A stretch of DNA of 64,000 nucleotides, from assembly GCA_031547085.1 (NCBI GenBank), contig JAVBSH010000085.1, positions 21,579 through 85,578 of the forward strand, given 5' to 3'. A program made the translations under genes and the position numbers. This DNA is from Bacteroidales bacterium. Its GTDB lineage: Bacteria > Bacteroidota > Bacteroidia > Bacteroidales > UBA4181. The notes below the pieces were generated by a model. That model searched no databases, was not told where the DNA came from, and saw only the letters and a list, made by a program, of their open reading frames with translations. This document shows positions 3,935 through 13,208 of the stretch, in pieces (the first letter of the stretch is position 1; every line of letters begins with the position of its first letter).

Positions 3935-4269
3935 TGAAACAATTAATTGCCTGTTGCGGATTAGATTGCGAAAGTTGCGATGCCCGCATAGCCACTGTTC
4001 AAAATGACAATGAGTTAAGAGAAAAAACAGCTCAAAAGTGGAGTGTAATGAATAATGCACCGGAGATTACAGCAGCAACCATCAATTGTATGGGTTGTCG
4101 CGCAGACGGAGTAAAATTTGCGTATTGCAGCGATTATTGCGAAATCCGCAAATGTGTGCATGACAAAGGATTTAATACCTGCGGCGACTGTAAGGAATTG
4201 GATGATTGTCCGATAGTTGGTGCTGTTTTTCAGCATGCTCCAAGCGCAAAAAAAAATCTTACCTTTTAA
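3931..4269 (+). CDS. DUF3795 domain protein
   Basis: IACCGLDCESC..CMGCR..CEIRKC..TCGDC. Confidence 0.8.
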   Translation: MMKQLIACCGLDCESCDARIATVQNDNELREKTAQKWSVMNNAPEITAATINCMGCRADGVKFAYCSDYCEIRKCVHDKGFNTCGDCKELDDCPIVGAVFQHAPSAKKNLTF

Positions 4270-5149: not shown

Positions 5150-6001
5150 TTAGTTTGTTTCATTTTTTATAATGAACCTTATTATTCCTTCAATAACTGT
5201 ATCCCAATCCAACCGGTGGATTTCATGCCCTGCACCATTTAGCGGCATCAGTTCTGAATGAGGAATGGTGTGATGTAACGCTTCGGCATGGGCAAAGGGT
5301 AATACAATATCTTCCGTTCCATGAATAATCAATGTTGGTATTGTAATCTCTTTCGATTTCCCGTATAAACTTTCGCCACCCTGTATCAACGAATGATTCA
5401 GCATACAGTGCAGATTATTGGCTCTTTCCACTTCCGTAGTCGCCAGTTTTCTTGCTTGTTTCTCTTCAAACGGATGTCGGGAACCGTTCAGCAGTTGCCA
5501 TCCATCCACCATGTAGCTGATGATTGCTTCCTTATCTTCCCAATCCAAACCGGCAACGGAAGAATGGTATTCGATAACAAGTTTATCAATCTGTGGTAAG
5601 TAGGGCAAATCATCCCAAACACTTGATGAAATAAGAGTCAGGCTTGATACCCGTTCCGGATTCCGGATGGCGGTAATTTGCGCCAGCATTCCACCAAGCG
5701 ACATTCCTGCCAAATGGGCTTTCTCAATCTGGTACGCATCCAGGATATTCAGTACATCATCGGCCATATTCAATACATCATAATCTGGCTGAAACGGCAC
5801 GGAGCAAGAGGATTGTCCCATATCCCTGTTATCGTACCGGATGACATGGAAGCCCTTATCTGCCAATTTCTGACAGAATTCTGTATCCCACCATACCATG
5901 GATGCACCGGCTCCCATCATCAATAACAATGAAGGATTCCGGGTATCTCCAAAACTCTCGGTGCAAATTTCTATCTTATTTTTCTTCACTCTCTTTTCCA
6001 C
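5150..6001 (-). CDS. alpha/beta hydrolase, EstT/EstX/RdmC-like esterase
   Basis: TESFG, W..EFC..L..KG..VIRYDNRD.G.S, GMSLGG nucleophile elbow, IHGTED, GAGHE. Confidence 0.85.
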   Translation of the reverse strand: MEKRVKKNKIEICTESFGDTRNPSLLLMMGAGASMVWWDTEFCQKLADKGFHVIRYDNRDMGQSSCSVPFQPDYDVLNMADDVLNILDAYQIEKAHLAGMSLGGMLAQITAIRNPERVSSLTLISSSVWDDLPYLPQIDKLVIEYHSSVAGLDWEDKEAIISYMVDGWQLLNGSRHPFEEKQARKLATTEVERANNLHCMLNHSLIQGGESLYGKSKEITIPTLIIHGTEDIVLPFAHAEALHHTIPHSELMPLNGAGHEIHRLDWDTVIEGIIRFIIKNETN

Positions 6002-6051: not shown

Positions 6052-7113
6052 TTAGTCGTAAATAGACTCCCTCATTTTCACTAATAGCTCGTTTATCCGA
6101 TTTTCGTCCGGCATATCCGGCAAATCGCTTGTGGCATACAACTGTTCTATTCCGGCTATTTTTTCATTAGCCATTTTTACCAGTTCATCGTATAAAAATT
6201 CACCGTTCTTGATTTTGAGAAGAAAATCCCTGTCCTTCCGGAACACATGAATTTGTTTTTCAACAGCAATTTCTTCCGCCATGTTCAGCAGACGGAATGT
6301 ATGCATCATATTTTTTGCATCGTAGTTTTTACCATGCTCTAACGTATTCTGAAAACGGATATCATTCCGGTTGCCTACCCAATCCCAATATTGAGCATAT
6401 TCTTTACAATAGATAGAATATCCATCTTTATTAAAACTCATCATTGCCTTTGGCTCCAACTTTTCAGGGATTGAACTCAATTGAATATCATTGGCATTAT
6501 CTCCGGAACAAACTCCCGATAGCTTTTCTTTTGTCTGACTTTGATGAAAAATAGCGTACATATCTTTTGAATGTGGGATGTTGATTAATCCGCAATCTTC
6601 TTGTTGATAATCATTTCTGTTAAGCCAAACTTGTAGGGGAACAGAAGTATGCCCCTCAATGATGTAACAAAAGTCCAATATGCTTTTTCGTTTTTCATCT
6701 ACCGGGTTGAAAATCTTTTTGTTAAGACCTTTAGCCTTCTTTATTTGCGATTGTGCATATCCTGCAAATGTTTGCAAACAAAGTTTTGAAAGAAACATCT
6801 CCGGCTGAATTAAATCCATAACCGGATGTTTATATAGAACTTTGTCAGAAGGTGTATTCAGCAGTTCCAAGATATTGGGATTGTTCCGGGCAAGTAATTC
6901 CATAAACCGTTTCAACTCATAATATACAATATCATTAGTCGGATTGGCTACCTGTTCAGTATAATAAAGTCCATAAAACTCCTCTTTGCCAAGAGCATAG
7001 ACTCCTTTGATATCCGTATCTGATTGTGGGGTATCTAAACCATAAGCCTTACTGCCACTTATACATTGTAGCAGTAGAACCTGTTGATTGTTATGTACTT
7101 GTTCGAATGTCAT
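6052..7113 (-). CDS. Pol-beta superfamily nucleotidyltransferase (RlaP/PF10127-like)
   Basis: ISGSKAYGLDTPQSDTDIKG (GS..DxD), NPNILELL, YDAKNMMHTFRLL. Confidence 0.85.
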   Translation of the reverse strand: MTFEQVHNNQQVLLLQCISGSKAYGLDTPQSDTDIKGVYALGKEEFYGLYYTEQVANPTNDIVYYELKRFMELLARNNPNILELLNTPSDKVLYKHPVMDLIQPEMFLSKLCLQTFAGYAQSQIKKAKGLNKKIFNPVDEKRKSILDFCYIIEGHTSVPLQVWLNRNDYQQEDCGLINIPHSKDMYAIFHQSQTKEKLSGVCSGDNANDIQLSSIPEKLEPKAMMSFNKDGYSIYCKEYAQYWDWVGNRNDIRFQNTLEHGKNYDAKNMMHTFRLLNMAEEIAVEKQIHVFRKDRDFLLKIKNGEFLYDELVKMANEKIAGIEQLYATSDLPDMPDENRINELLVKMRESIYD

Positions 7114-7859
7114 GAAATAAAATTTCTGAATAAAACATTTAACGGTTCGATATCTATATTCTCTTTATTGGTCAAAGGAACCTGTTGTTCACAAAACTCC
7201 ATTTGTTCTTCAATAAATGCATTCAGAACCGCAACCGGTTGAATGGTCGTTTTTTCAGTAGCCTGGGCTTTTATCGTTAGTAATTCATCAATCGCTTTCT
7301 GCCAGGCTTCATCTTTAATCTGATTCCTGAGTAAAGCAAACTCCATTGGTGGAAGTTCTTGTTTATCAACAATCCAGCGAGCAGCTAATAATGGACGAAG
7401 GCAATAAAAATATTTTTTTATTCTGACTTCATCTCCCTGCAACTCACTCCATGCGTTTTTTGCCATACCTAAGTAGTGGTGCATGCCTTTCCGCAATGAA
7501 AAATACTCAGGCATTAAACCCTTTAAGTCTTTCAGGAAAGAATCATCTTGCTTGTAAATAATCGGAGATTGCAGCCATTCATAGAGTGGCGCATTGGAAT
7601 TACAAAATAAACGAAGTGATTTCCTGAAATCCCAACCGTTGATATCCAGTACTTCATTGACAGGAATATCAATGGTGTCCTTTTTCTCTTCAATACTCAA
7701 ATATTGCTCTTTTGATAAACTGTAAATAAAGCGCACATCATAATCGCTGTCTGTGGATGGGAAACCCCACGCGCGGCTCCCCGACTCACAGGCATACAAT
7801 ATCCGGACATTATATTTTTCTTCTATCCCGATTAATTTATCTTGTATCTCTTGAAACAT
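7110..7859 (-). CDS. Pol-beta superfamily nucleotidyltransferase (YcgL/RlaP-like)
   Basis: ACESGSRAWGFPSTDSDYDVRFIY, DINGWD.RK, EWLQSPIIY, KKYFY.LRP; start placed at ATG 7859. Confidence 0.88.
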   Translation of the reverse strand: MFQEIQDKLIGIEEKYNVRILYACESGSRAWGFPSTDSDYDVRFIYSLSKEQYLSIEEKKDTIDIPVNEVLDINGWDFRKSLRLFCNSNAPLYEWLQSPIIYKQDDSFLKDLKGLMPEYFSLRKGMHHYLGMAKNAWSELQGDEVRIKKYFYCLRPLLAARWIVDKQELPPMEFALLRNQIKDEAWQKAIDELLTIKAQATEKTTIQPVAVLNAFIEEQMEFCEQQVPLTNKENIDIEPLNVLFRNFIS

Positions 7860-7867
7860 AACTCTCC

Positions 7868-7955
7868 TATTTTCTGTAAATATAGTGAAAGGTGAGCGGC
7901 AAATCAAGCTTGCTTGAATTTGTCCGAACCGCATCCTATATAATGCAAATATATG
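7868..7955 (-). repeat. small palindromic intergenic element with internal TAnnTTTG promoter box
   Basis: Minus strand TATATTTG followed by hairpin CAAATTCAAGCAAGCTTGATTTG, between rtcB and the first nucleotidyltransferase. Confidence 0.45.
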
Positions 7956-7958
7956 CAT

Positions 7959-9131
7959 TTACCCTTTAATCACAGCCAACGGACTCAATTCAGTTCTGAT
8001 TTTCACCAAATCCGATTGAAAGGCCATTACTTGAGAAATATCTTTATAAGCTGAAGAAGCTTCTTCCAAATCCGATTGGCTTCTCACGGAATGAATAATT
8101 CCCAATTCATCTAATTTGCGTTTTTCAGCTTCTAAATCCAGCGTTTTAATAGCAGCACTTCTGCTTAATGCCCGTCCGGCACCATGTGAACAACTCATAA
8201 AACTTTCCGGATTTCCCAAACCTTCCACAATATAGGATTTTGTTCCCTGTGAACCCGGAATAATTCCGGTTTCTCCTGCTTTGGCTGAAGTTGCCCCTTT
8301 TCGGTGAATTATCACTTTCTCTCCGAAATGTTCTTCGAAAGCAGCATAATTATGGGCAATATTGATAATTGGCTCGTATTCCACATTCGTTACAACTGAA
8401 GAAATTGCTTCTTGAATCCGTTCCATCATCAATCGGCGGTTGGCAAATGCGAATTCGGTACAGTAACGCATTTCTTTGTAATACTTATGTGCTTCATCTG
8501 TCTGGAAAGGCAGGAATGCCAAATCTGCTTTGGGGTTGACTGAAGAAAACCAGAGTTCATTCATTTTCTTTGCTGCTCTGTTGTAATGGTCTGCCACCTG
8601 CTTTCCTAGATTACGGCTTCCTGAATGTATCATAATCCACAAGTAACCATCATTACATCGTTGTAATTCGATGAAGTGATTTCCTCCTCCCAGCGTTCCG
8701 AGCTGCTTCAAAGCCCCTAAATATTGGTTTTTGATGACGTGAAGTTCATCAATATTAAAATCCTGTGGCATCAGGCTTTCGTCCTGACGTTCTTTCTGAT
8801 GCTCGAAACCCAGCGGGACCGATTCACGGATACCACTCATTATTTTTTTGATGTCTTCTTTGGATAAGGAATCGGCAATAGTGTTCGTTTTTACAGCGCA
8901 CATTCCGCAACCGATATCTACACCGACAGCATTCGGAATAATCACTCCTTGGGTTGCCAATACTCCTCCTATAGGCATTCCATAACCCTGATGAGTATCC
9001 GGCATCAAACAAATTTGTTTGAAAGCAAATGGCAGATTCGCTAAATTCTTAGCTTGTACAATAGAACCTTCTTCCGGTTCATCCAACCAGATTTTGATTG
9101 GAATTCTTTCTGTTGAAATTACTTTTTGCAT
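7959..9131 (-). CDS. rtcB: RtcB family RNA 3'-phosphate/5'-OH ligase
   Basis: MPDTHQGYGMPIG, VGVDIGCG, LGTLGGGNHFIE, HSGSR, HNY, HRKGA, SCSHGAGR, AYKD. Confidence 0.96.
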   Translation of the reverse strand: MQKVISTERIPIKIWLDEPEEGSIVQAKNLANLPFAFKQICLMPDTHQGYGMPIGGVLATQGVIIPNAVGVDIGCGMCAVKTNTIADSLSKEDIKKIMSGIRESVPLGFEHQKERQDESLMPQDFNIDELHVIKNQYLGALKQLGTLGGGNHFIELQRCNDGYLWIMIHSGSRNLGKQVADHYNRAAKKMNELWFSSVNPKADLAFLPFQTDEAHKYYKEMRYCTEFAFANRRLMMERIQEAISSVVTNVEYEPIINIAHNYAAFEEHFGEKVIIHRKGATSAKAGETGIIPGSQGTKSYIVEGLGNPESFMSCSHGAGRALSRSAAIKTLDLEAEKRKLDELGIIHSVRSQSDLEEASSAYKDISQVMAFQSDLVKIRTELSPLAVIKG

Positions 9132-9157
9132 AATAGACTACAAATTAAACATTAAAA

Positions 9158-9263
9158 ATGAGAGCAACTGGCATAAAGGGATTCATAACATTACTGTTAT
9201 GGCAAGATTTGAACTTGCACGCTGAAAAGCTAACCGATGGAGCCCTTTACTACGGCATCTCAT
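9158..9263 (-). ncRNA. Y-RNA-like unit 5 (basal stem + T arm + acceptor-like hairpin)
   Basis: ATGAGA-TGCCGTAG-TAAAGGG...CCCTTTA-TGCCAGTTGC-TCTCAT; T arm GCAAG-TTCAAAT-CTTGC; CATAACA-GTAA-TGTTATG. Confidence 0.75.
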
Positions 9264-9271
9264 ATCACTAA

Positions 9272-9407
9272 AAACAGAAGTAACAAGCGAAAAGGGAAAC
9301 GGGGCCTGACGTGCCGGAGTCGAACCGGATAGTCTCGTCGGTTTTACGACCTCACTATTCCTCCCCTAAATTGAGTCGAAGTAACCCTTCTCTACGACAT
9401 TCTGTTT
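9272..9407 (-). ncRNA. Y-RNA-like unit 4 (basal stem + extra hairpin + T arm)
   Basis: AAACAGAA-TGTCGTAG-AGAAGGG-TTACTTCG...CCCTTTT-CGCTTGTTAC-TTCTGTTT; T arm CCGG-TTCGACT-CCGG. Confidence 0.75.
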
Positions 9408-9422
9408 GTGAATTAAAATCAA

Positions 9423-9512
9423 AAATGAGAGCAATATTCATGAAGAGACATGGCCGGATTCGAACCGGCGGTGGCCACTTACGAAGTACTTCTTCATTAC
9501 GGCATCTCATTT
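9423..9512 (-). ncRNA. Y-RNA-like unit 3 (minimal: basal stem + T arm)
   Basis: AAATGAGA-TGCCGTAA-TGAAGA-AGTACTTCG...GCCGG-TTCGAAT-CCGGC...TCTTCA-TGAATATTGC-TCTCATTT. Confidence 0.75.
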
Positions 9513-9520
9513 GTTCAGTA

Positions 9521-9650
9521 AAATAGAGGTAATGAGCGAATAGGCTCTATATCGGTATTTTGATTAAACTACGATAAGTTATCGGCAACATTGGTTAGTT
9601 GCATCTCCGGCGTTACAAGCGAAGAAATCCTATTCTACGACACTCTATTT
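9521..9650 (-). ncRNA. Y-RNA-like unit 2 (basal stem, no tRNA module)
   Basis: AAATAGAG-TGTCGTAG-AATAGG-ATTTCTTCG...CCTATT-CGCTCATTAC-CTCTATTT; internal hairpins GCAAC/GTTGC and CGATA/TATCG. Confidence 0.7.
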
Positions 9651-9677
9651 ATATTCTTTCATATTTCAAATAACTGT

Positions 9678-9874
9678 TGGTCCCTCCAGTGAGATTCGAA
9701 CTCACATTCCCTCTCAGGCAGTATGGCTGTAAATACGCTTCCCTACTTCCGTGCTACCGATTTCGGTGCATCTGTAAACTCTACCCATTAGTCCGCACAG
9801 GTCTAACCGGAATTTCCACACACGCTGCGATAAGTCAATTTTTCCGCAGGCTTTTCCTTTTAAGCTATGGAGGG
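9678..9874 (-). ncRNA. 197-nt tRNA-like RNA with ~143-nt insert replacing the anticodon/variable region
   Basis: Acceptor CCCTCCA/TGGAGGG-A-CCA; TA; D arm GCTT-AAAAGGAA-AAGC; T arm GTGAG-TTCGAAT-CTCAC. Confidence 0.75.
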
Positions 9875-9880
9875 GATTAT

Positions 9881-10002
9881 AAAAAGCAAGGCGACAGGTC
9901 AACAAGAGACTATATACTGCTCTACCCGCTGAGCTACATCTTGCGATGGCCGGAATCGAACCGGCGGCCCGAAGGAACCCTTATTTACGGCACTTGCTTT
10001 TT
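9881..10002 (-). ncRNA. YrlA-type Y RNA (unit 1; permuted tRNA-like domain)
   Basis: Basal stem AAAAAGCAAG/CTTGCTTTTT with TGCCGTAA; T arm GCCGG-TTCGATT-CCGGC, capped acceptor CATC-GCAA-GATG, TA, D arm GCTC-AGCGGGTA-GAGC; begins 6 nt after the TROVE stop. Confidence 0.85.
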
Positions 10003-10008
10003 CTTTCC

Positions 10009-11526
10009 TTACAATTCGATGGCTTTAATCTCTTTCAAAGCATCGCTTCCATTATCGATGGCTGACAATATGTCGAATACTTTATCCGACCATCCGGCTA
10101 TCAAATGTACATCCTCCTGGGTGATATCCAACGGAACCTGTCCGTATCCCGCCAAATCGAACAAATACAATTTGGCACCCGGAGCGATAATTTTATACTT
10201 TTTCCAAACATCTTTCAGCTGGGTATCACCACCGTTGCTGTTCCACAACTGACAGTCGGTGAATATCATGATTTTATCCATCACCTTTTTCCGGTCGATC
10301 AAATCCTGGATCACCAAATGTCCGTTGGTAGAATATCCCACTTCGCCTTCCCGTTTGTAGAAAGCATCAACGTTGGATAGAACCCCGCTGTCCGGTAGAT
10401 TAACAACCTTCCATGTATCCCCGAATATCCCGGAAACCACATTCTTGCAACGGGATTTCAACAACATGCCAAGCATCAACCCGATATCGTAGCTCATCAC
10501 TTTGCTTTTCGGAGAAATAGCCCGTTGCATGGAACCTGATACGTCACAGGCCACCAATACCTTGGTCGATTCATCGAAACCGGCTATGTTTCCGGCAGCA
10601 ACTTTCACCGCCTCCTCCAACGCGTTCATGACTTTGGAAGCATAACCGGAACTGATTTGCGACAATTCCCTGAACGCAGCCAGAAAACGGAACGGCAATT
10701 GTTTGGACCGAAGCACTTTCTCCCGGGAATGGATCGTTTCACAAACCCGGTTGATGTGATTCAAAGAAACTTCCGCTTCCAGTATATTGCGAAGATTCCG
10801 CAACAAAGCCATATAACCTACTTTCCCGCTATCGATCAGTTCTTCCCATTTCTGAGTGAAAGCTGCTTTTTTAGCTTCTTCCGATTCAAATTTGTTCTGT
10901 CCCACGGCCGACAATTCTGTTTCCCACGTATAGGGAGTTTGCAAGGTACCTTCAACGATTTTATTGAAAACTATCTGCTGCTCGTCGTCTTTTGCTTTCG
11001 GGTGAACGAGAAACAAAGCATCCTTCAATTTGATTTCCGCATCGCGGTTATACTTGGCAAACTGGTATTCGTCGAACTTGTTGAACGCATTCTGTAGTCC
11101 GGACTGCAATTGTTTGGACAGACGGTTCAGCTTTTTAGTCCCTTTCCGCTCGTTTGCCAGTTGGTAATACGCCAGCAATTCGGTGATTTCATCCGCACGT
11201 TGAACGATCCGTGTTGTCATTTGGCACAACAAGGAATCTCCTGTATGAACTTTGGCCAACTCAACAGCCAATACCAACGGTATGGAACGAAGATTCATTT
11301 GCTCTCTTGCGTACACCGCCAAACGAGCCACAAATTGCGGATCGTTCTCACCAATCAGTTTGCGAAGGGATTCCAATCGCTCGGAAGCTGTTTCGTAAAA
11401 TTTATCGCTCAAAGAAGAAGTTACCACAGCGGTATACAAGTTCCACTCCGGAGATAATTGGTAAGCAGGTGCATTCTCATGGTTCAAAACCTGATTTTTT
11501 CCTTTGTTGATAAGATTGAATTTCAT
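10009..11526 (-). CDS. rsr: TROVE/vWA domain protein (Ro60/Rsr ortholog)
   Basis: LAVYARE.MNLRS, FDEYQFAKY, YMALLRNLRN, SKQLPFRF, vWA MIDAS DVSGSM and FTD. Confidence 0.93.
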   Translation of the reverse strand: MKFNLINKGKNQVLNHENAPAYQLSPEWNLYTAVVTSSLSDKFYETASERLESLRKLIGENDPQFVARLAVYAREQMNLRSIPLVLAVELAKVHTGDSLLCQMTTRIVQRADEITELLAYYQLANERKGTKKLNRLSKQLQSGLQNAFNKFDEYQFAKYNRDAEIKLKDALFLVHPKAKDDEQQIVFNKIVEGTLQTPYTWETELSAVGQNKFESEEAKKAAFTQKWEELIDSGKVGYMALLRNLRNILEAEVSLNHINRVCETIHSREKVLRSKQLPFRFLAAFRELSQISSGYASKVMNALEEAVKVAAGNIAGFDESTKVLVACDVSGSMQRAISPKSKVMSYDIGLMLGMLLKSRCKNVVSGIFGDTWKVVNLPDSGVLSNVDAFYKREGEVGYSTNGHLVIQDLIDRKKVMDKIMIFTDCQLWNSNGGDTQLKDVWKKYKIIAPGAKLYLFDLAGYGQVPLDITQEDVHLIAGWSDKVFDILSAIDNGSDALKEIKAIEL

Positions 11527-11554
11527 AACTTTTTGTTTTTATCGTTTGACTTTG

Positions 11555-11562
11555 CAAAGATA
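11555..11562 (-). promoter_or_regulatory. Bacteroidetes -7 promoter box for the rsr-Y RNA-rtcB operon
   Basis: TATCTTTG on the minus strand ~30 nt upstream of the rsr ATG. Confidence 0.7.
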
Positions 11563-11572
11563 TCCTCATAGG

Positions 11573-11591
11573 TGCGCAATCTTTTTGCGTA
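11573..11591. promoter_or_regulatory. palindromic operator, candidate WYL-regulator site
   Basis: TGCGCAA-TCTTT-TTGCGTA between two divergent -7 boxes. Confidence 0.6.
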
Positions 11592-11606
11592 ATAAAAATT
11601 ATTTTC

Positions 11607-11657: not shown

Positions 11658-12185
11658 ATGAAAAAAATAAAAAGAAAAGTTGGTTGGAGTGTTCTTGTTA
11701 TTATTATAATCGGAATTCTCCTTCCTCAACAGTTTGCCATGCCTGTAGAAGGAGCCGACAGCAAGAGCTATAATGCGAATACATTCTGGTACTATCCCTG
11801 GGGAAAATCAATCATACATAAAGGTATTGATATTTTCGCTAAAGAAGGTACGAATATCTGTTCATCAACGCCCGGGCTGGTCATTGCTTCCGGTGAAAAC
11901 GGCAGGGGAGGAAATTTTGTGCTTGTTTTAGGAGCTAAATGGAGAGTGCATTATTTTGCACATCTAAAAGACATATACGCCAAACCTTTTACATGGGTTA
12001 ATAAAAGCAGACCAATCGGAACCGTCGGAAAAACCGGGAATGCAGCAACAACTCCGGCACATCTTCATTATGCAATTGTCACTCTGATACCATATCCCTG
12101 GTGCATTGACAGTGATAAACAAGGATGGAAGAAAATGTTCTATTTGAATCCGATTGATTATTTGAAAAAAGAAGAATCAAGATAA
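11658..12185 (+). CDS. M23 family metallopeptidase
   Basis: HKGID, HYFAHL, VGKTGNA, HLHY motifs; N-terminal anchor. Confidence 0.9.
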   Translation: MKKIKRKVGWSVLVIIIIGILLPQQFAMPVEGADSKSYNANTFWYYPWGKSIIHKGIDIFAKEGTNICSSTPGLVIASGENGRGGNFVLVLGAKWRVHYFAHLKDIYAKPFTWVNKSRPIGTVGKTGNAATTPAHLHYAIVTLIPYPWCIDSDKQGWKKMFYLNPIDYLKKEESR

Positions 12186-12197
12186 AGCCAAATCATT

Positions 12198-13208
12198 ATG
12201 CCTGCCAATAGAAATGCCCTCATCCGTTATAAAACCATTGATACGTGCCTGAGAAATCGTTATCGTCAGTGGACATTGGAGGATTTGATAGACGCTTGTT
12301 CCGATGCCCTTTACGAGTTCGAAGGAATCGAAAAAGGCATCAGCAAACGCACCATTCAGATGGACATCCAGTTGATGCGCAGTGAAAAACTGGGTTATAA
12401 CGCCCCGATTATCGTTTATGATAATAGGTATTATACGTATGAGGACCCAAACTACAGTATTACCAATACTCCACTTTCCGAACAAGATTTGAAAGTCATG
12501 TCGGAAGCTGTGGAAGTTCTGCGTCAATTCAAGGGATTTGATTATTTCACCGGAATGACGGATATTGTCAGTCGCTTGGAAGACCATGTGACTTCTGCCA
12601 GACAGCATACGATTCCGGTTATTGATTTTGAGAAGAATGAAAACCTGAAAGGATTGGAGCATCTGGATACGGTTTACCATGCCATTGTCAACAAGCAAAC
12701 GCTAAGTATCAAGTACCGTTCATTCAAAGCCCGCTCTGCCGGAACAATTATCTTTTATCCTTATTTATTGAAAGAATACCGCAACCGTTGGTTTGTTTTC
12801 GGATTGGAGAGAAAAAGCCGGACCTTACGCAATCTTGCCCTCGACCGCATTCATGGATTGGAAATTGCAACCGAAGAACGATTTATTGAAAACTCACTTT
12901 TCGACCCTGCTACTTTTTTCAATGATTTGGTAGGTGTTACCAAAAGTCTCAACTCCCAAGCGGAAAAGGTTCGTTTTTGGGCTGGCAGTGGAGATGCTCC
13001 TTATATTCTGACCAAACCGATTCACCGGAGTCAACAATTGATGGAACGGAATAATGACGGCAGTATGGTTTTTGAAATTGAAGTGGTAATCAACCAGGAA
13101 TTACAGCGGGAATTTTTGGGGTTTGCCAATGGTATCAAAATATTGGAGCCGCAACACCTGGTCGATTTTATAAAGACAAAACTGAAAAGGGCCAGTGAAA
13201 ACTATTAA
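12198..13208 (+). CDS. WYL domain transcriptional regulator (HTH-WYL-WCX)
   Basis: N-terminal wHTH (ISKRTIQMDI..MR), PYLLKEYRNRWF, LALDRI, C-terminal KILEP..L. Confidence 0.92.
   Translation: MPANRNALIRYKTIDTCLRNRYRQWTLEDLIDACSDALYEFEGIEKGISKRTIQMDIQLMRSEKLGYNAPIIVYDNRYYTYEDPNYSITNTPLSEQDLKVMSEAVEVLRQFKGFDYFTGMTDIVSRLEDHVTSARQHTIPVIDFEKNENLKGLEHLDTVYHAIVNKQTLSIKYRSFKARSAGTIIFYPYLLKEYRNRWFVFGLERKSRTLRNLALDRIHGLEIATEERFIENSLFDPATFFNDLVGVTKSLNSQAEKVRFWAGSGDAPYILTKPIHRSQQLMERNNDGSMVFEIEVVINQELQREFLGFANGIKILEPQHLVDFIKTKLKRASENY

Follow-up and report, generated by a model that had tools for sequence, protein, structure and literature searches.

The 64-kb window, the whole stretch of DNA that was analysed, contains a locus that is in all likelihood an RNA-repair operon of the order rsr (Ro60), Y RNA array, rtcB and rlaP, in which separate Y RNAs join a Ro60-module stem to effector tips. 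The five units of the array are best read as Y RNAs of a Bacteroidota type, unit 1 being YrlA-like. The initial annotation had proposed Y-RNA-like genes with a shared Ro60-type stem and modular tips, and this reading is supported by the position and strand of the units, the match of unit 1 to YrlA, and phylum-wide conservation with covariation. The array is a good example of a known RNA kind. The least described element of the locus is a tRNA-framed RNA lying between units 1 and 2.

Organization of the Ro60 locus

The features of the locus are as follows; R1 is a covariance model of the units, described below.

12198..13208, plus strand: WYL/WCX-domain protein, candidate regulator (Pfam WYL 3e-14, WCX 1.1e-10)
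11658-12185: small M23-like gene, preceding the WYL/WCX gene
10009..11526, minus strand: Ro60/Rsr orthologue, 505 aa, with TROVE and Ro60-type vWA domains (Pfam TROVE 4.8e-31)
9881..10002, minus strand: putative Y RNA unit 1, YrlA-like, basal stem module with T arm, acceptor-like hairpin and D arm (R1 46.2 bits)
9670..9878, minus strand: tRNA-framed RNA, about 210 nt (nhmmer, RNAalifold, R2 222 bits)
9521..9650, minus strand: putative Y RNA unit 2, basal stem module and a tip that lacks tRNA parts (R1 53.6 bits)
9423..9512, minus strand: putative Y RNA unit 3, basal stem module with T arm only (R1 63.5 bits, unit 3 itself being part of the R1 seed alignment)
9272..9407, minus strand: putative Y RNA unit 4, basal stem module with extra hairpin and T arm (R1 59.2 bits)
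9158..9263, minus strand: putative Y RNA unit 5, basal stem module with T arm and then a 7-bp hairpin (R1 45.4 bits)
7959..9131, minus strand: RtcB RNA ligase (Pfam RtcB 1.3e-115)
7110..7958, minus strand: RlaP, Pol-beta-type nucleotidyltransferase of RNA repair operons (Pfam RlaP 2.8e-85)
6052..7113, minus strand: second RlaP-like gene (Pfam RlaP 6.7e-26, N-terminal half only)

The gap between the TROVE/Ro60 gene and rtcB is 877 bases long, and the five units and the tRNA-framed RNA occupy about 793 of them. Unit 1 starts 6 nt past the TROVE stop codon, all five units share the TROVE strand, and the spacers between the RNA genes, read from the sequence, are 2–27 nt. The Ro60 orthologue has relatives with 61–95% identity in 80 Bacteroidota records; its vWA_Ro60 match (Pfam 1e-4) is below the cut-off of that model. 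With 4-kb flanks scanned, 34 of 81 related Ro60 loci have RtcB downstream of TROVE on its strand. The WYL/WCX gene is divergent from the Ro60 operon, and a relative of it is opposite in strand to TROVE in 49 of the 81 loci. Neither rtcA nor RtcR was found among the eight neighbouring genes scanned by Pfam.

The Salmonella rsr-yrlBA-rtcBA operon, as described by Hughes et al. (2020, PMC7790460), has the same order of rsr, Y RNAs and rtcB on one strand. It carries rtcA, whereas the window locus carries two RlaP genes and the divergent WYL-domain gene, and it has two Y RNAs, compared with five and a tRNA-framed RNA here.

The five putative Y RNA units

The initial annotation had placed five hairpin units on one scaffold, and both direct reading and R1 recover them. 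R1 places units 1 to 5 at 9884-9999, 9522-9649, 9424-9511, 9273-9406 and 9157-9264, with E values of 1e-10 to 1e-15.

The tips follow the series given in the initial annotation. In unit 1, end-to-end alignment with Rfam YrlA reveals T, acceptor-like and D arms, and no other unit in the window has such a permuted tRNA-like domain. Unit 2 gave no T or D arm in a strict arm test. The same test found T arms of 5 base pairs in units 3 and 5, and folding showed the 7-bp hairpin after the T arm of unit 5. In unit 4 the T arm that accompanies the extra hairpin has a 4-bp stem; it was read by eye, having been missed by the strict test. Such tips, ranging from none to a full tRNA mimic on one stem, provide a natural deletion series for partner recruitment tests.

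Copies of the units are found in related loci. Those of unit 1 are 90–98% identical (L004, L005, L008, L011), those of unit 4 87–96% (L005, L006, L008, L011, L012, L014) and those of unit 5 95–98% (L005, L008, L011). Unit 3 has copies in L011, L008 and L006, and unit 2 a 90% identical copy in L011 only.

Covariation in the shared stem

The scaffold common to the five units consists of a closing helix, a bulged U, a G(C/U):(G/A)C step, CGUA(R), a second helix and an apical UUACUUCG-like motif. The DNA motif TGYCGTAR occurs 14 times in the 64-kb window, as compared with 5.25 ± 2.29 in shuffled sequences, and five of the 14 copies fall in the TROVE–rtcB gap on one strand.

Covariation within the locus, as claimed in the initial annotation, is borne out. 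In an alignment of the five units that was fitted to the R1 model, and is therefore biased towards structure, 96.5% of the cells are paired and 11 of 17 pairs show double-sided change. None of 500 shuffles equalled this covariation, and slid controls paired at 44–62%. The GY:RC pair shows a C-G/U-A exchange among the units, 3 versus 2.

A second alignment, A1, was made of units picked by a scanner. In it 18 of 22 pairs changed on both sides, and slid controls paired at 41–59%. Its 97.9% pairing is circular, because the scanner choosing its units required pairing; only the variety of pair types and the following shuffle test of motif and helices are free of this circularity. On the TROVE strand the 8-nt stem motif was counted 278 times, versus 29 on the other strand. 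With no selection on pairing, both helices were present at 133 of the 278 TROVE-strand motifs, versus 1 of 278 after shuffling of the downstream sequence. Minimum-free-energy folds of single units gave z-scores of only −0.9 to −3.1 and often missed helix 2, and we therefore relied on the comparative evidence.

Probable Y RNA arrays across Bacteroidota

The first scanners gave chance matches once the motif was relaxed, so the covariance model R1 was used instead. Its seed consists of 22 short units from 19 loci and the window, the latter supplying unit 3 only. R1 matched the five units and nothing else in the 64-kb window, and the same five only in the own genome, where 150 of 1933 first-look candidates were scored.

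The scan of Bacteroidota TROVE neighbourhoods suggested in the initial annotation shows that the structure is conserved, with 348 R1 matches in the 81 related Ro60 loci. Among the 300 matches listed of these 348, all are on the TROVE strand. At least one unit is present in 77 of the 81 loci, at least four in at least 52, and five to eight in at least 25. Units number one to eight per locus on a constant scaffold (one to six in the close relatives of the window locus), and include minimal units of 65–95 nt. Ro60 loci of Bacteroidota normally hold arrays of three to eight Y RNAs, arrays of four to eight being usual, and the view of the five-member repertoire as an unusual expansion is not supported. 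No paper describing multi-unit arrays of such Y RNAs was found in a search that lay outside key reviews and supplements.

The Y-stem motif was also sought in viral contigs. At least 117 pattern matches were obtained, yet R1 confirmed units in 5 of 80 loci examined and a TROVE relative was present in 1 of 80, so these matches are mostly due to chance.

The T arms in four of the five units and the D arm in unit 1 raise the question of whether the units are decayed tRNA genes, the remnants of a tRNA array beside rtcB with no Ro60 role. Real tRNA genes are often interspersed in Bacteroidota Y arrays: tRNA arrays occur at related Ro60 loci, and there genuine tRNA genes alternate with units. Long tRNA arrays adjoining rtcB were published in 2021 (PMC8421152), and one published model has YrlA arise from tRNA transcripts that are dimeric (bioRxiv 10.1101/312249). 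What is conserved and covaries, however, is the basal stem, a non-tRNA part shared even by units free of tRNA parts. Such units make up 67 of 149 scanner-picked units from other loci and are the largest tip class; 48 of the 149 carry both T and D arms. None of the five units was called by ARAGORN, and among the 150 of 1933 candidates scored in the own genome, R1 matches occur only in the gap beside TROVE. Among 80 loci anchored on the tRNA-framed RNA, 13 have Y units and 12 have TROVE (counted separately). Decay of tRNA genes is thus a very improbable account of the units. It concerns their present function only; a descent of the units from tRNA is compatible with their being Y RNAs.

Comparison with known Y RNAs

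The Rfam YrlA model RF02553 matched unit 1 with 39 bits (E 2.6e-6), below its gathering score of 69, and units 2 to 5 had no match at E up to 10. The search with this model called for in the initial annotation thus supports unit 1 alone, at a score below the curated one. No match in 14 related loci reached the cut-off. The public YrlA model at its curated threshold therefore misses the stem of this lineage and leaves the RNAs unannotated.

YrlA (RF02553) is known from Salmonella Typhimurium and M. smegmatis, and over 250 species have predicted homologues (Chen et al. 2014, PMC4201824). YrlA and unit 1 both adjoin rsr on the same strand, have their 5′ and 3′ ends in a long stem, and carry a permuted tRNA mimic at the tip. 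The published stem motif of YrlA is GNCGAA (PMC4201824). That of the present units, G-N-C-G-U-A, is one base off, with CGUA in place of the CGAA of characterised Y RNAs. Units 2 to 5, unlike YrlA, are without the full tRNA-like domain.

Additional Y RNAs of the same locus, arising from a common precursor, have been described as YrlB in Salmonella and M. smegmatis and as Yrn2 in D. radiodurans. By these descriptions some RNAs of the YrlB/Yrn2 type bear a T arm alone or a plain hairpin, and units 2 and 3 and the minimal units of 65–95 nt are alike in this respect. Two Y RNAs per studied species are described for three species by Chen et al. (2014, PMC4201824), compared with five on one lineage-specific stem module here, the likeness being one of description. 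The same account mentions three further small RNAs near rsr of D. radiodurans, which it does not count as Y RNAs.

Vertebrate Y RNAs, two to four per species, are likewise paralogues with one Ro60-binding bulged stem and differing loops. They are separate Pol III genes without tRNA-like tips, and are likened to the present units by description. The Ro60 of Bacteroides has attracted interest as a commensal look-alike of a human lupus autoantigen, and knowledge of its RNA partners may be of wider use. A TROVE gene is present in Bacteroides thetaiotaomicron.

Transcription of the array

The study behind the probable source sample also produced metatranscriptome contigs, which were placed on the locus. 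Contigs of one run cover 29 of 30 bins of 7900-11600; RNA ends and strand are not visible in them, and they may stem from carried-over DNA. Another RNA run of that study, X21, gave nothing that could be placed on the stretch, though this does not prove absence.

A sigma-70 promoter scan was uninformative, with 13 sites versus 9.8 ± 3.1 in shuffled sequences. A Bacteroidetes-type promoter pattern gave 2 matches versus 2.6 expected, none of them on the operon strand. By eye only, a TAnnTTTG-like element is seen 28 nt ahead of the TROVE start. No convincing terminator was found between the RNA genes, the counts being no higher than in shuffled sequences, and within the array the T arm of unit 3 was the lone terminator-like site. 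The short spacers and the lack of a convincing terminator fit a single precursor. A common Y RNA precursor has been published for M. smegmatis and D. radiodurans (PMC4201824).

The position of the units within an apparent operon, with short spacers and no internal promoter or terminator detected, would also suit elements acting in cis on one mRNA: they would process, stabilise or attenuate it and so set the expression ratio of rsr to rtcB, and would not be free RNAs. Yet the units are found upstream of TROVE in some loci, L061 and L076 among them, and many loci with units have no rtcB in their 4-kb flanks. The number of units changes between loci while the scaffold does not, and mimicry of tRNA parts at the tips would be superfluous for a mere processing site. 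The characterised homologues in three species are, furthermore, stable RNAs bound by Rsr (PMC4201824). We consider a purely cis-acting role unlikely.

A model for the Y RNA units

Each unit would be a separate small Y RNA whose 5′ and 3′ ends pair into the conserved basal stem. Helix 1, the bulged U, the G(C/U):(G/A)C step, the CGUA(R) loop and helix 2 make up this stem, which would be this lineage's form of the Ro60-binding module. The tips would offer different effector modules, namely a full permuted tRNA mimic, a lone T arm, a hairpin with a T arm, a T arm with an acceptor-like hairpin, or none. Most likely a single precursor spans rsr, the units, the tRNA-framed RNA and rtcB; it would then be cut apart, with Ro60 stabilising the released Y RNAs. 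Judging from Deinococcus and Salmonella, the Y RNAs would act in RNA damage by gating Ro60 or by linking it to partners such as PNPase or tRNA-handling enzymes. They may be interchangeable adaptors or decoys, as the initial annotation had suggested.

A different proposal has the units working mainly without Ro60, which would be just a neighbour: they would serve as tRNA-fragment decoys for, or sensors of, tRNA-cutting toxins, or RtcB and RlaP would use them as guides or substrates. [quoted passage not shown] The invariant part of each unit, however, is the Y-type stem and not the tRNA-like tip, and units of the most common class have no tRNA part. This makes a role mainly apart from Ro60 quite improbable, and Y RNAs with a Ro60-type stem are the preferred reading.

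The tRNA-framed RNA

The initial annotation had mentioned a tRNA-framed RNA in the gap. This RNA is real, as shown by nhmmer and by RNAalifold covariation, and had been undervalued. Besides a 7-bp acceptor stem and a D arm, it has an anticodon-like arm whose loop, at 13–18 nt, is oversized (7 nt in tRNA). A long-range helix then closes a domain of about 100 nt, which occupies the variable region and is followed by a small hairpin and the T arm. An A-C is conserved 3′ of the acceptor stem.

RNAalifold of 15 sequences gave 45 pairs, 35 of them with compensatory changes; a pair count of 15 sequences gave 48 pairs, 97.9% paired, with 36 double changes. All 15 sequences show, with covariation, the acceptor stem, the D arm with its GG and the T arm with its UUCGA-type loop, and the same three covary again in 76 distinct sequences. 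An all-against-all covariation scan yielded the known helices and wobble noise, with no tertiary pairs or pseudoknot. ARAGORN made no call on the RNA, and Rfam gave no match, including to tRNA at E up to 10.

The tRNA-framed RNA is present in a single copy in the own genome. It is conserved in several classes and is found in long tRNA gene arrays and RNA-repair islands; in 23 of 25 metagenome loci with at least three tRNA genes, it lies inside or at the ends of same-strand tRNA arrays. BLAST found it in at least 3 of 400 sampled genomes of the phylum, an undercount with two candidates scored per genome. Its motif gave no match in viral contigs. It is rather likely to represent a real, widespread and undescribed family of structured RNA, and as an element of this locus it appears undescribed.

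The arrays of PMC8421152 resemble those that hold the tRNA-framed RNA and those at related Ro60 loci; the terms Ro60, TROVE, Y RNA and tRNA-like are absent from the main text of that paper. The window itself differs from those arrays in having no genuine tRNA gene within 8000-11500 (ARAGORN). The tRNA-framed RNA links Ro60 operons with long tRNA arrays and RtcB repair.

A broader and doubtful possibility is that such loci form a phylum-wide tRNA-damage island. A WYL-type sensor would induce Ro60, Y RNAs tipped with graded tRNA pieces, RtcB, RlaP, the tRNA-framed RNA and, in relatives, spare tRNAs. Against tRNA-cutting toxins, the Y RNA tips and the tRNA-framed RNA might then work as decoys, sensors or delivery handles, and the latter RNA might be a new class belonging to long tRNA arrays.

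As a minor observation, the Y-unit motif UUACUUCG is complementary over 5–6 nt to the invariant AAGUA of the tRNA-framed RNA, most likely by chance.

Y RNA units between the TROVE and rtcB genes

The stop codon of the TROVE gene and the start of rtcB are separated by an 877-base gap (9132–10008), in which ARAGORN called no tRNA. Its contents and neighbours are as follows.

Features of the Ro60 locus in the window
11658–13208, plus strand: small M23-like gene and WYL/WCX-domain gene, divergent from the operon
10009–11526, minus strand: TROVE/Ro60 protein, 505 aa
9881–10002, minus strand: unit 1 (R1 match 9884–9999)
9670–9878, minus strand: tRNA-framed RNA, about 210 nt
9521–9650, minus strand: unit 2 (R1 match 9522–9649)
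9423–9512, minus strand: unit 3 (R1 match 9424–9511)
9272–9407, minus strand: unit 4 (R1 match 9273–9406)
9158–9263, minus strand: unit 5 (R1 match 9157–9264)
7959–9131, minus strand: RtcB
7110–7958, minus strand: RlaP-type nucleotidyltransferase
6052–7113, minus strand: second RlaP-type nucleotidyltransferase

A common scaffold can be read directly from the sequence of all five units. It begins with a closing helix of 6–10 pairs and a bulged U, followed by a two-pair step of G(C/U) opposite (G/A)C and the loop CGUA(A/G). Next come a second helix of 7–8 pairs with a purine-rich 5′ strand, an apical motif near UUACUUCG and a variable tip, and the returning strands carry a loop of 7–9 nt preceding (G/A)C. 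The only meaningful Rfam match in the gap is YrlA (RF02553) on unit 1 (9885–10000), covering the full model length with a score of 39 bits (E 2.6e-6), which is below the curated threshold of 69 bits. A covariance model, R1, was seeded with 22 short units drawn from 19 related loci and the window, which contributed unit 3 only. R1 gives exactly five matches in the 64 kb window (E 1e-10 to 1e-15), and the same five only in the 5.8-Mb genome, where 150 of 1933 first-look candidates were scored. The 8-nt motif TGYCGTAR occurs 14 times in the window, versus 5.25 ± 2.29 in shuffles, with five of these copies inside the gap on one strand. Direct reading and the R1 matches thus confirm the five scaffold-sharing stretches named in the initial annotation.

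Covariation within the locus had also been claimed, and it holds in an alignment that is model-fitted and leans towards the R1 structure: 96.5% of the cells pair, and double-sided changes are seen at 11 of 17 pairs. This level was reached by none of 500 shuffles, and slid controls pair 44–62%. The five units are real, and sequence, structure and context give good support for calling them Y RNAs, whose Ro60 binding, processing and function are so far putative. The lineage-specific stem module, missed by public models, is new. YrlA carries the motif GNCGAA and has been described close to rsr in more than 250 species, and two or more Y RNAs were reported for each of the three species studied (Chen et al. 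2014, PMC4201824); the main text of that paper does not contain the term "Bacteroidetes".

Arrays in related Ro60 loci

TROVE is sporadic in the phylum, being found in 21 of 400 sampled genomes. A one-genome-per-species scan identified 384 stretches encoding relatives of the window Ro60, the best 80 of which were used. Of these, 79 are labelled Bacteroidota (Bacteroidales, Dysgonomonas, Flavobacterium, Chitinophagaceae, Cytophagales, Saprospiraceae and others). Together with one locus from a genome of the window's genus they make a set of 81 loci. RtcB lies downstream of TROVE on the same strand, 0.25–3.3 kb away, in 34/81 loci. A WYL relative is found opposite the TROVE strand in 49/81, which suggests that the WYL gene is a candidate regulator of the operon in place of RtcR.

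R1 finds 348 matches in the 81 loci (E up to 1e-3). Among the 300 matches listed, all are on the TROVE strand and at least one unit is present in 77 of the 81 loci. The units per locus, counted among these 300 of 348 matches with flanks of 4 kb or less, are lower bounds: one unit in 7 loci, two in 6, three in 12, four in 27, five in 17, six in 6 and eight in 2. With five units the window falls about midway among the counts seen in the phylum, and the expanded repertoire proposed in the initial annotation is no special expansion. At Rfam curated thresholds, YrlA was absent from 14 related loci and only tRNAs were found.

Both partners vary at 18 of 22 pairs of the seed alignment, with 41–59% pairing in slid controls; the alignment's 97.9% pairing is circular because the members were picked by a scanner requiring pairing. 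The result is the same in a test unselected for pairing: of 278 bare 8-nt motifs on the TROVE strand, 133 have both helices in register, compared with 1/278 after downstream shuffling and 1 of the 29 motifs on the other strand. That cassette arrays are general, with tRNA-like tips forming a graded series, is new. Multi-unit Y RNA arrays in Bacteroidota were the subject of no paper in our literature search, and a prior description is possible.

Two Y-like RNAs adjoin a phage Ro60 (2025 paper, PMC12135203). Two IMG/VR contigs, which may be phage DNA or host flank, carry arrays of R1 units: six in L106, together with a TROVE relative, and five in L167.

Modular tips and interleaved tRNA genes

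The tips of the units form the series of tRNA parts described initially, unit by unit. Unit 1 bears T, acceptor-like and D arms, unit 2 is without a tRNA part, and T arms are present in units 3 and 5, with a 7-bp hairpin beyond that of unit 5. The T arm of unit 4 has a 4-bp stem and was read by eye, the strict 5-bp test having missed it. Among 149 scanner-picked units of other loci, 48 have T and D arms, 34 a T arm alone and 67 neither, the strict T-arm test being an undercount. The modular series is thus a property of the family, not of the window locus. A model deriving YrlA from dimeric tRNA transcripts is cited by Wang et al. 2018 (bioRxiv 10.1101/312249). In L011, a close relative of the window locus, an ARAGORN tRNA-Thr(cgt) at 4086–4162 overlaps a T-arm-bearing unit (R1 match 4096–4183) and is probably a miscall from the tRNA-like tip.

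Several Ro60 loci interleave their Y units with genuine tRNA genes. The order in L061 (2876–3910) is Pro, Y, Phe, Y, His, Y, Gln, Y, Lys, Y, Arg, TROVE, and one-for-one alternation is also seen in L073, L037, L062, L039, L057, L034, L042 and L052. The tRNAs recurring in such arrays are Lys, Phe, Arg, His, Gln, Asn, Asp, Glu, Pro, Trp and Tyr, many of which are targets of anticodon nucleases. This interleaving in the relatives is a new point. Polycistronic Y RNA precursors, including one with tRNA-Asp in Deinococcus, have been described (Chen et al. 2014, PMC4201824).

Turnover of the units and possible transcription

Close relatives encode TROVE proteins 84–92% identical to that of the window, yet their unit sets differ. 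L011 has all five window units and one extra YrlA-like unit; L008 shares the extra unit and is without unit 2; L005 has units 1, 4 and 5. L004 has unit 1, and the first ~50 nt of the tRNA-framed RNA are fused there to the end of unit 5 (5640–5900). A contig from DNA sequencing run X1, the probable source sample, skips 548 bases within 9131–9680, with 23 other letters between, a deletion that truncates the tRNA-framed RNA at its 3′ end and removes units 2 to 5. Unit 4 is 90–91% identical to its copies in two Dysgonomonas loci (L012 8155–8291 and L014 6875–7010), where the Ro60 protein is 71% identical; it is either far more conserved than its neighbours or recently exchanged.

Metatranscriptome contigs from one run, belonging to the study that also produced the probable source DNA run, span 29 of 30 bins of 7900–11600. 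They give no ends, strand or level, and the RNA library may contain DNA, so that they offer only a weak hint of array transcription.

The tRNA-framed RNA

The least expected element is the tRNA-framed RNA, which is undescribed in the literature searched: no paper on it was found, and a prior description is possible. It has no Rfam match in the window or 14 related loci. A sequence-only profile identified full-length relatives in Flavobacterium, Ferruginibacter, Chitinophagaceae, Saprospirales, Sporocytophaga and Rapidithrix loci. From 15 sequences aligned with plain MAFFT, RNAalifold predicts an acceptor stem of 7 bp, a D arm whose loop has GG, and an anticodon-like arm whose loop of 13–18 nt starts G-N-AAAA. 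A long-range helix is predicted to close a domain of ~100 nt with invariant single strands, followed by a small hairpin, a canonical T arm and a conserved A-C past the acceptor stem. The 48 pairs, including one 3-bp helix added by hand after an A-U/G-C swap was seen, are 97.9% paired with 36 double-changed, and slid controls pair 37–42%. The same helices are kept in 76 distinct sequences.

A model of this RNA, R2, exceeds 170 bits in 17 of 82 Ro60 sources. A motif scan of metagenome contigs gave at least 120 matches; all 80 loci examined were confirmed, 76 of them full length. Among these 80, TROVE is encoded in 12, RtcB in 15, RlaP in 12 and WYL in 22, and 25 have three or more tRNA genes, which lie on the strand of the tRNA-framed RNA in 23 of the 25. 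A TROVE match is absent from 2 of the 3 sampled phylum genomes carrying the RNA, and in one TROVE-less genome it adjoins a 14-tRNA array. It is commoner in same-strand tRNA arrays and RtcB/WYL islands than in Ro60 operons. From this metagenome context and the carrier genomes without TROVE, the tRNA-framed RNA belongs to long tRNA arrays and RNA-repair islands and occurs in Ro60 operons only in some cases. It may act as a decoy, sensor or substrate in tRNA damage. Long tRNA arrays have been linked to rtcB (Santamaria-Gomez et al. 2021, PMC8421152), in a paper whose main text does not contain the terms Ro60, TROVE, Y RNA or tRNA-like.

Other loci carrying the tRNA-framed RNA
L003, L005, L008, L011, L015, L016, L018, L022, L040, L047, L048
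L051, L052, L055, L057, L063, L093–L095, L213–L292

Immunity-protein-type genes of the SUKH (SMI1/KNR4) family were seen at L095 6655–7188 (G183) and L093 7303–8235 (G246). One context is within the Ro60-rtcB operon of a Flavobacterium-like genome, and the second is beside the tRNA-framed RNA in a TROVE-less genome.
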